Assembly: GCF_044647545.1 (NCBI RefSeq) | Contig: NZ_CP172818.1 | Strand: one strand, 5' to 3' | Length of the DNA stretch: 64,000 bases | DNA from: Escherichia coli | Lineage (GTDB): Bacteria > Pseudomonadota > Gammaproteobacteria > Enterobacterales > Enterobacteriaceae | Translations under genes and position numbers: made by a program | Notes under the pieces: generated by a model | What the model was told of the DNA's origin: nothing | Seen by the model: the letters and a program-made list of their open reading frames with translations, nothing else | The model's database searches: none | Part shown: positions 12,257 through 12,960 of the stretch, piece after piece | Position numbering within the stretch: the first letter of the stretch is position 1 | How the letters are laid out: each line of letters starts with the position of its first letter

Positions 12257-12960
12257 CCGAAAACCTCTGTACCGACATCAAAACGGGCACAAAATACAGG
12301 CAGAAAGTTACCGATGAAAGAAAGCAAATCAAGCGCAATGATACTCTGACGAGTACGAGAAAACTGCAGTGATAACGGCAACAGAGAATGAAAAAAACAA
12401 AAAACAAAAAAAAAAAAAAAAAAAAAAAAAAAAAAAAAACAAAAAAAAACGCCTGCGTGTCAGAGCGGTGGCGCTGAAAACTGCCCTGATTGTGAAGGCA
12501 CTGCACAGGGCGAATCACTACCAGACGGCATCAAATAGTGAAACAATACAGGACGATCATGCTGGGAGAAATGGAACGCCAACTTCGACACACGATTTTG
12601 CGCCGTCTCCAGTGGAGTGGCTGACGGATAATGGTTCATGCTACCGGGCTAATGAAACACGCCAGTTCGCCCGGATGTTGGAACTTGAACCGAAGAACAC
12701 GGCGGTGCGGAGTCCGGAGAGTAACGGAATAGCAGAAAGCTTCGTGAAAACAATAAAGCGAGACTACATCAGTATCATGCCCAAACCAGACGGGTTAATG
12801 GCAGCAAAGAACCTTGCAGAGGCGTTCGAGCATTATAACGAATGGCATCCGCATAGTGCGCTGGATTACGCTCGCCACGGGAATATCAGCGGCACCTGGC
12901 TTGATAAAGGCAATTAAGTGATAAGAGAAGTCTGAAAGAGAAATATCCGACAGGCGTGGA
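12200..12960 (+). mobile_element. insD: Degenerate IS2-family (IS3 family) transposase orfB remnant, no orfA, interrupted by poly(A) tract
   Basis: Translated segments RQNALLLDRKP (approx 12215-12250) and [25 protein letters not shown]...EWHPHSAL (12560-12860) match IS2 InsD as recalled; ends approximate. Confidence 0.7.
12390..12450 (+). repeat. A-rich homopolymer-like tract (57 A + 4 C; longest pure run 35 A at 12405-12439)
   Basis: Directly read from sequence. Confidence 0.97.

Follow-up and report, generated by a model that had tools for sequence, protein, structure and literature searches.

Genomic context of the tract

The window, i.e. the whole 64,000-nt stretch of DNA that was analysed, includes sequence of a Qin-type lambdoid prophage, the integrase end of which adjoins rspB and rspA. 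At this end, a ydfE-like exonuclease gene (from 11318) is followed by a 3' fragment of IS2 orfB (InsD), an intQ-type integrase gene and, on the minus strand, rspB. This agrees with the earlier note on this DNA, which had recognised an IS2-like transposase remnant at the ydfE-insD-intQ junction. An A-rich tract interrupts the IS2 fragment, with the following features around it:

11318-12240, plus strand: prophage exonuclease (ydfE-like), 5' 923 nt, identical to FDAARGOS_497 save for a private inserted C at 12228
12241-12390, plus strand: left garbled IS2 orfB flank, ~81% identity to canonical IS2 (8 gap openings)
12379-12452, plus strand: 74-nt stretch replacing the 7 nt AGAGAGA of IS2 (net +67 nt, out of the InsD frame), from alignment
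12391-12450, plus strand: A-rich tract (56 A, 4 C) in which 12406-12439 are 34 uninterrupted A, from base counts
12453-12600, plus strand: right garbled IS2 orfB flank, ~80% identical to canonical IS2, with 12 inserted bases and 0 deletions
12601-12905, plus strand: remaining 3' part of IS2 orfB, 96.4% identical to canonical IS2
12906-13052, plus strand: xis-int intergenic region and integrase start, FDAARGOS_497-like, from alignment
13053-14212, plus strand: remainder of the intQ-type integrase, with one difference from FDAARGOS_497 (13154) and 99% identity to K-12

Gene order and orientation are those of the K-12 Qin end (ydfE'/insD-7'/intQ' next to rspB), where a 3' part of IS2 orfB likewise lies between truncated exonuclease and integrase genes, followed by rspB and rspA. 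The breakpoints are not shared: homology to K-12 stops at 12084 and resumes at 13053, whereas the joins of the window are at ~12240 and ~12906-12937. Compared to K-12, the exonuclease/IS2 join lies 156 nt deeper into the exonuclease and 76 nt deeper into IS2 (+156 nt of exonuclease, -76 nt of IS2), and the window has 147 nt more of the integrase start and no IS2 terminal repeat. Of the 1331-nt element, only the 3' ~630 nt are present, in a frame broken by many indels, and a transposase-competent orfA/orfB pair is absent from this fragment. The IRR (...GGGGCAAATCCA) was not found at the IS2 3' end, the last ~20 nt of IS2 being missing. IS2 homology fades at ~12937 in the alignment and xis-int intergenic sequence takes the place of these terminal nucleotides.

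As deposited, the exonuclease is joined to IS2 at a 7-nt microhomology (CGCCAGA), and the exonuclease part matches thousands of complete E. coli genomes, up to 12240 only. If the private C at 12228 were removed, the exonuclease would be read on in frame into InsD (..ALRYDRQ/NALLL..). No exact match was found for the predicted 510-aa exo::InsD fusion, and a homology search for the join among 5.8 billion protein clusters returned none, the top match having an internal duplication only. On the integrase side, 12906-13052 contain ~20 differences private to the window, in the form of small deletions and of C replaced by A. Positions 12905-12940 alternate IS2-like and relative-like bases, together with bases found in neither, and look like a mixed consensus rather than a clean crossover. 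All close relatives examined have an intact exonuclease-xis-int arrangement, 1.2 kb longer than the locus in the window.

Composition and position of the tract

The four C of the tract are located at 12398, 12405, 12440 and 12450. Based on the letters, the earlier note had described 12390-12450 as A except for four C, with 35 uninterrupted A from 12405. The tract is indeed present, but its start was placed too early, 12390 being a G, and with a C at 12405 the longest pure run amounts to 34 A. The chance expectation for runs of at least 34 A is ~8e-16 in 64 kb on both strands (~1e-15 as a summary figure). The longest homopolymer in the rest of the window is 8 nt, and in 142 kb of related E. coli loci it is 9 nt, which bears out the view that a homopolymer of such size is highly atypical in E. 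coli. An Rfam search associated no RNA family with the tract, and a repeat scan around it revealed no target-site duplication, flanking direct repeat or other structure.

Alignment with the K-12 Qin remnant and with full IS2 places the tract between neighbouring IS2 nucleotides, ...GGAGAGAGA and CTGCGTGTCA..., in line with the proposal that it was inserted at adjacent InsD positions. The bases bordering it code for the InsD residues ...CDNGE-RLRVTF...; those on the left end in ...GATAACGGAGAGAGA and those on the right start with CTGCGTGTCA.... The anchors GATAACGG (12371-12378) and CTGCGTG (from 12453) are separated by 74 nt in the window and by 7 nt in IS2. Since the net gain of 67 nt is not divisible by three, the tract is out of the InsD frame and not an in-frame insertion, as had been thought. 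The flanking translation quoted at the time is correct. It comes from the ORF 12369-12917 (182 aa), in which the tract is translated as a run rich in K, and its 'ITATENE' results from reading the CDNGE-coding DNA out of frame. This ORF stays open across the tract because its GTG start uses a non-InsD frame on the left side.

A-biased differences from IS2

In RefSeq, the features that were matched are labelled 'IS3-like element IS2 family transposase', and homology of the fragment to IS2 orfB amounts to ~80% over the flanks (12233-12390 and 12453-12600) and 96.4% over 12601-12905. The tract is the centre of a ~300-nt zone with one-sided differences from canonical IS2. A is the new base in 30 of the 46 substitutions (replacing G in 18 cases, T in 10 and C in 2; binomial p=1e-5) and is never the base replaced (0/46; binomial p=1e-6), and it accounts for 24 of the 33 inserted bases (binomial p=1e-8). 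Counted per 50 nt and moving off the tract, the differences fall from 15 over 12 and 4 to 1 in the left flank; in the right flank the counts are 12, 9, 10 and 1. The A content per 50-nt bin rises toward the tract from 0.38 over 0.44 and 0.50 to 0.96, and the A-enrichment is on the plus strand at both sides. In the left flank, the changes are chiefly to-A substitutions and A insertions, denser near the tract. Further to the right (12601-12905), 6 of the 10 mismatches to canonical IS2 are to A by alignment count.

Against K-12, the IS2 part is 81% identical over 12234-12390 (8 gap openings) and 89.7% over 12453-12937 (12 gap openings), and the prophage and chromosome sequences flanking it align at 95-99%, ungapped. 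The K-12 Qin remnant has no tract and equals a full IS2 copy at each alignment column shown, whereas the IS2 part of the window is 3.6-20% altered, with a bias to A. The idea that the element was already degenerate apart from the tract is contradicted by this comparison. The degeneracy is private to the window, A-biased and densest beside the tract, and is therefore part of the same anomaly.

As judged by alignment, the template is canonical IS2 and not a divergent IS lineage, the IS2-like variants of relatives matching less well. A natural divergent IS2 lineage was considered and rejected for this reason. The IS2 copies on plasmids speak against it as well, those listed being ~82% identical over both flanks (best 82.4%).

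Distribution in genomes, plasmids and protein collections

As the earlier note had advised, the region was compared with K-12 and other E. coli. The genome set comprised 5,426 complete E. coli genomes, with a criterion of at least 80% query coverage, and the plasmid set 72,556 plasmids. The tract variant and the exonuclease/IS2 junction are absent from K-12 and from all 5,426 complete genomes, where no place reached at least 80% coverage of the tract-spanning queries. The best genome match to the IS2 part in this set is 89.9%. Among the plasmids, 3,029 of the 72,556 records, across genera, have a match to the two flanks, the best and all listed matches being ~82% identical. None of the ~3,000 plasmid records with an IS2 match has the tract variant, the tract itself or the exonuclease/IS2 junction.

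Exact probes for the left flank (39-mer) and for the exonuclease/IS2 junction (26-mer) gave zero matches in species-representative genome contigs and JGI metagenome contigs. Among ~15 billion proteins, the 182-aa tract ORF and the 312-aa exonuclease fusion ORF were each found on one NCBI contig (4,499,902 nt), the former as a singleton cluster. No donor sequence for recombination was found in any collection searched.

Remainder of the window

Apart from small private clusters, the sequence outside the tract zone is clean, and the backbone has no large insertion relative to K-12. Positions 14300-34300 are 100.0% identical to at least 15 complete genomes. Compared to FDAARGOS_497, 13155-64000 has one SNP (16819) and two tiny deletion clusters; the 51 kb after the tract zone thus differ from the closest relative by one or two SNPs, beyond small private indel clusters. 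Upstream, 8484-12240 is 99.7% identical to FDAARGOS_497, and the private differences are chiefly single-base indels, such as the deletions at 8991 and 9015 (an A and a G), with 9443 listed in the same set. The private clusters away from the tract are:

10257-10402, no strand assigned: private indel cluster with 8 differences (GG to G deletions, AA insertion), from comparison with FDAARGOS_497
52872-53044, no strand assigned: two private deletion clusters relative to FDAARGOS_497, 3 nt at 52872 and 12 nt at 53037-53044

The 3-nt loss at 52872 is at a terminator hairpin, and the 12-nt loss at 53037-53044 falls exactly at the uidC/uidA deletion junction. For a query spanning this junction, 85 of the 5,426 genomes cover at least 80%, and the 12 listed of these 85 share the same 97.5% match to the window. 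Losses of the GG to G type are seen in several private clusters. Those at 10257-10402, 12228, 12906-13042, 52872 and 53037-53044 are located at or beside structural junctions or IS sites. The clusters at 10257-10402 and 52872-53044 are anomalies of the kind seen in the tract zone.

The cluster at 10257-10402 frameshifts a 66-aa minus-strand gene of which FDAARGOS_497 has an intact version. A distance of 14 nt separates the start of the cluster from 10243, the insertion site of an IS2-like element in the closest relatives: WP4-S18-ESBL-09 and strain 4973 have a 1.33-kb element there (95.7% to IS2, with a duplication AAATC), which the window lacks.

Origin of the tract

The earlier note had left the choice open between a strain-specific expansion, a scar of an A-tailed insertion, an engineering scar and an assembly artefact. 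The evidence favours the last of these, and the other three less so. We consider it likely that the tract, together with its A-enriched and indel-rich surroundings, is a sequence-reconstruction error in one deposited assembly. The variant is private to a single assembly, the close relatives of which agree with each other. Its spectrum is error-like, i.e. rich in indels, with a strand-specific base bias and graded around a focus, and the record contains further independent error clusters (8991/9015, 10257-10402, 12906-13042, 52872 and 53037-53044). Ordinary divergence cannot account for roughly 100 changes in 700 nt when the adjoining 51 kb have one or two SNPs. The to-A-only spectrum, the excess of inserted A, the decay on both sides, the mosaic junction and the other clusters argue together for a poorly supported consensus. 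Spectrum and pattern are not those expected of a mutational process in double-stranded DNA. Since the garbled patch occurs in a sole assembly, the tract would most likely be a sequencing or assembly error, and not biology. An unpolished or poorly supported consensus has the same features: it is private, indel-rich and strand-biased, and comes together with small error clusters at repeats and structural junctions, the rest of the sequence being perfect.

The error would have arisen at a strain-variable repeat spot, where a copy of IS2 lies at the prophage exonuclease/integrase junction. A consensus built there from very few or misaligned reads could drift to A, for instance in a long-read bridge, a gap closure or the local reassembly of a structurally different stretch, or through a mixed population. 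Short-read polishing would then fail across the junction, probably because IS2 is multi-copy. This technical cause is one we infer from the pattern; to our knowledge, no specific program or platform is documented as yielding exactly such a pattern. Some points run counter to a reconstruction error. It is unusual for a 60-nt insertion to sit exactly between adjacent template bases, with the register regained afterwards. It is also mildly odd, though it may be due to chance, that more than 12 indels leave the 182-aa ORF open. Finally, a real long homopolymer would harm nearby base-calling, and part of the garble could be secondary to it.

Several specific technical routes were considered as well. 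Illumina reads whose tails decay to A, entering from both sides, were rejected as a source, as the right flank would then be T-rich on the plus strand, whereas it is A-rich. A 16th-century 'ancient' E. coli genome, combining damage with reference-guided assembly, was also rejected, that assembly being highly fragmented (N50 939 bp, 3.9 Mb; PMC9203756). A K-12 reference-guided pseudo-genome is a possible route that was not adopted. In its favour, K-12-type IS2 content lies within the K-12 breakpoints, with ~150-nt extensions on both sides, and 1751-3500 and 6501-8500 are identical (100%) to K-12. Against it, natural strains such as TUM1887 carry nearly the same mosaic, so a K-12-guided origin is not needed.

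Next to a reconstruction error, the reading that survives best is that the strain really has a poly(A) tract of its own, generated in a dead copy of IS2 by runaway slippage or A-rule repair synthesis and persisting as neutral sequence. We consider this unlikely, although the record that holds the tract is a deposited one of chromosome length, and the tract, being in non-functional DNA, would not be selected against. Polymerases preferentially insert A opposite non-instructive lesions (the A-rule). Such synthesis would turn G, T and C to A and keep A, which fits the 30/46 substitutions to A and 0/46 from A, and in IS2 the tract sits at a short purine repeat, GGAGAGAGA. However, no A-run is present there in IS2 to seed slippage, and no intermediate was found in the related genomes or plasmids searched. 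A run of 34 A should, from general knowledge, be very unstable in E. coli, and ~300 nt of localised damage with 24 inserted A is no known in vivo outcome. A local mutational event would also leave the other private indel clusters, at unrelated junctions, unexplained.

A quite improbable variant of this reading is an undescribed E. coli process, in which long A-runs are added or copied at a break and neighbouring non-A bases are changed to A on one strand. A-rule repair over a heavily damaged template, combined with runaway slippage and caught in a neutral IS2 pseudogene, would be an example of such a process.

In principle, the tract resembles the contingency tracts of phase variation, being a mononucleotide run in an ORF and slippage-prone. 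Contingency tracts are located in functional genes or promoters and recur among relatives with length variation. Here, in contrast, 34-60 nt lie in a pseudogene with degraded flanks and are private to one record: 0 of 5,426 complete genomes have the tract, its ORF is a singleton and the flank probes gave nothing in two collections. The location is a truncated IS2 fragment, out of the InsD frame, and not a functional gene or promoter. In a survey of homopolymeric tracts, the data are on lengths of 5-9 nt within coding genes and the models extend to 20 (PMC2831843).

It is highly improbable that the tract is a scar left by an A-tailed molecule, be it polyadenylated RNA after reverse transcription, cDNA or another retro-element-like insertion. 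A stretch of A with few C resembles a poly(A) tail, and its A-richness, length and composition are like those of the tails of retro-copies (processed pseudogenes, non-LTR elements); this is a resemblance only. Unlike such tails, it interrupts a contiguous template in a bacterial chromosome, without a target-site duplication or flanking repeat. As the bases on both sides are adjacent in IS2, the tract is not the 3' end of a copied transcript at its target DNA. No homolog with the tract was found among complete genomes and plasmids, no reverse transcriptase-like ORF stood out among the ORFs of 9000-16000, and the A-biased changes 150 nt to either side would be left unexplained. Least credible of all is a deliberate engineering scar, in the form of a lysine-coding poly(A) track or a cloning remnant: the ORF across the tract does give a K-rich stretch, but it lies in a truncated IS2 pseudogene at +67 nt out of the InsD frame, the run is irregularly interrupted by C, no FRT, lox, vector or primer-like sequence lies alongside, the flanks are themselves degraded and the backbone is that of a wild-type clinical or environmental lineage.

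If the tract is a reconstruction error, the deposited chromosome holds localised unreliable stretches at IS and prophage junctions. The resulting pseudo-ORFs (the poly-lysine ORF of 182 aa and the 312-aa exonuclease fusion) would already be present as singletons in large protein collections. For scans for odd sequences, the lesson is to check whether a feature is private to a single assembly and whether error clusters lie nearby before giving it a biological reading. Should the tract be true, a homopolymer of 34-60 nt whose flanks were converted to A on one strand would suggest that E. coli has a mutational or repair process not yet described.

Other features of the prophage and the uid region

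The left part of the prophage (1-8875) is a mosaic, with a best complete-genome match of 98.0% as a whole (TUM1887). The cspB/cspF and relBE-flxA regions (1751-3500 and 6501-8500) are the stretches at 100% to K-12 Qin, and 501-1750 and 4751-6500 have zero mismatches to FDAARGOS_497 (by blastn, 100% over 615-1739 and from 4383/4412 to 6415). Positions 3501-4750 diverge by ~8% from every panel genome, by substitutions only. This part covers an antiterminator (ydfT-like) gene with an intact 259-aa ORF and, in contrast to the indel-rich clusters, looks like a natural divergent allele.

Around 53040, between ydgA and uidR, uidA, uidB and most of uidC are deleted (4.17 kb in K-12). With the beta-glucuronidase operon deleted, the strain would therefore be GUS-negative.

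Two RNA elements score above the Rfam gathering score: the DicF antisense RNA at 10623-10674 on the plus strand (76.7 bits) and a cspA-type thermoregulator 5' leader at 2451-2843 on the minus strand (158.8 bits). Both are expected components of a Qin-type prophage.
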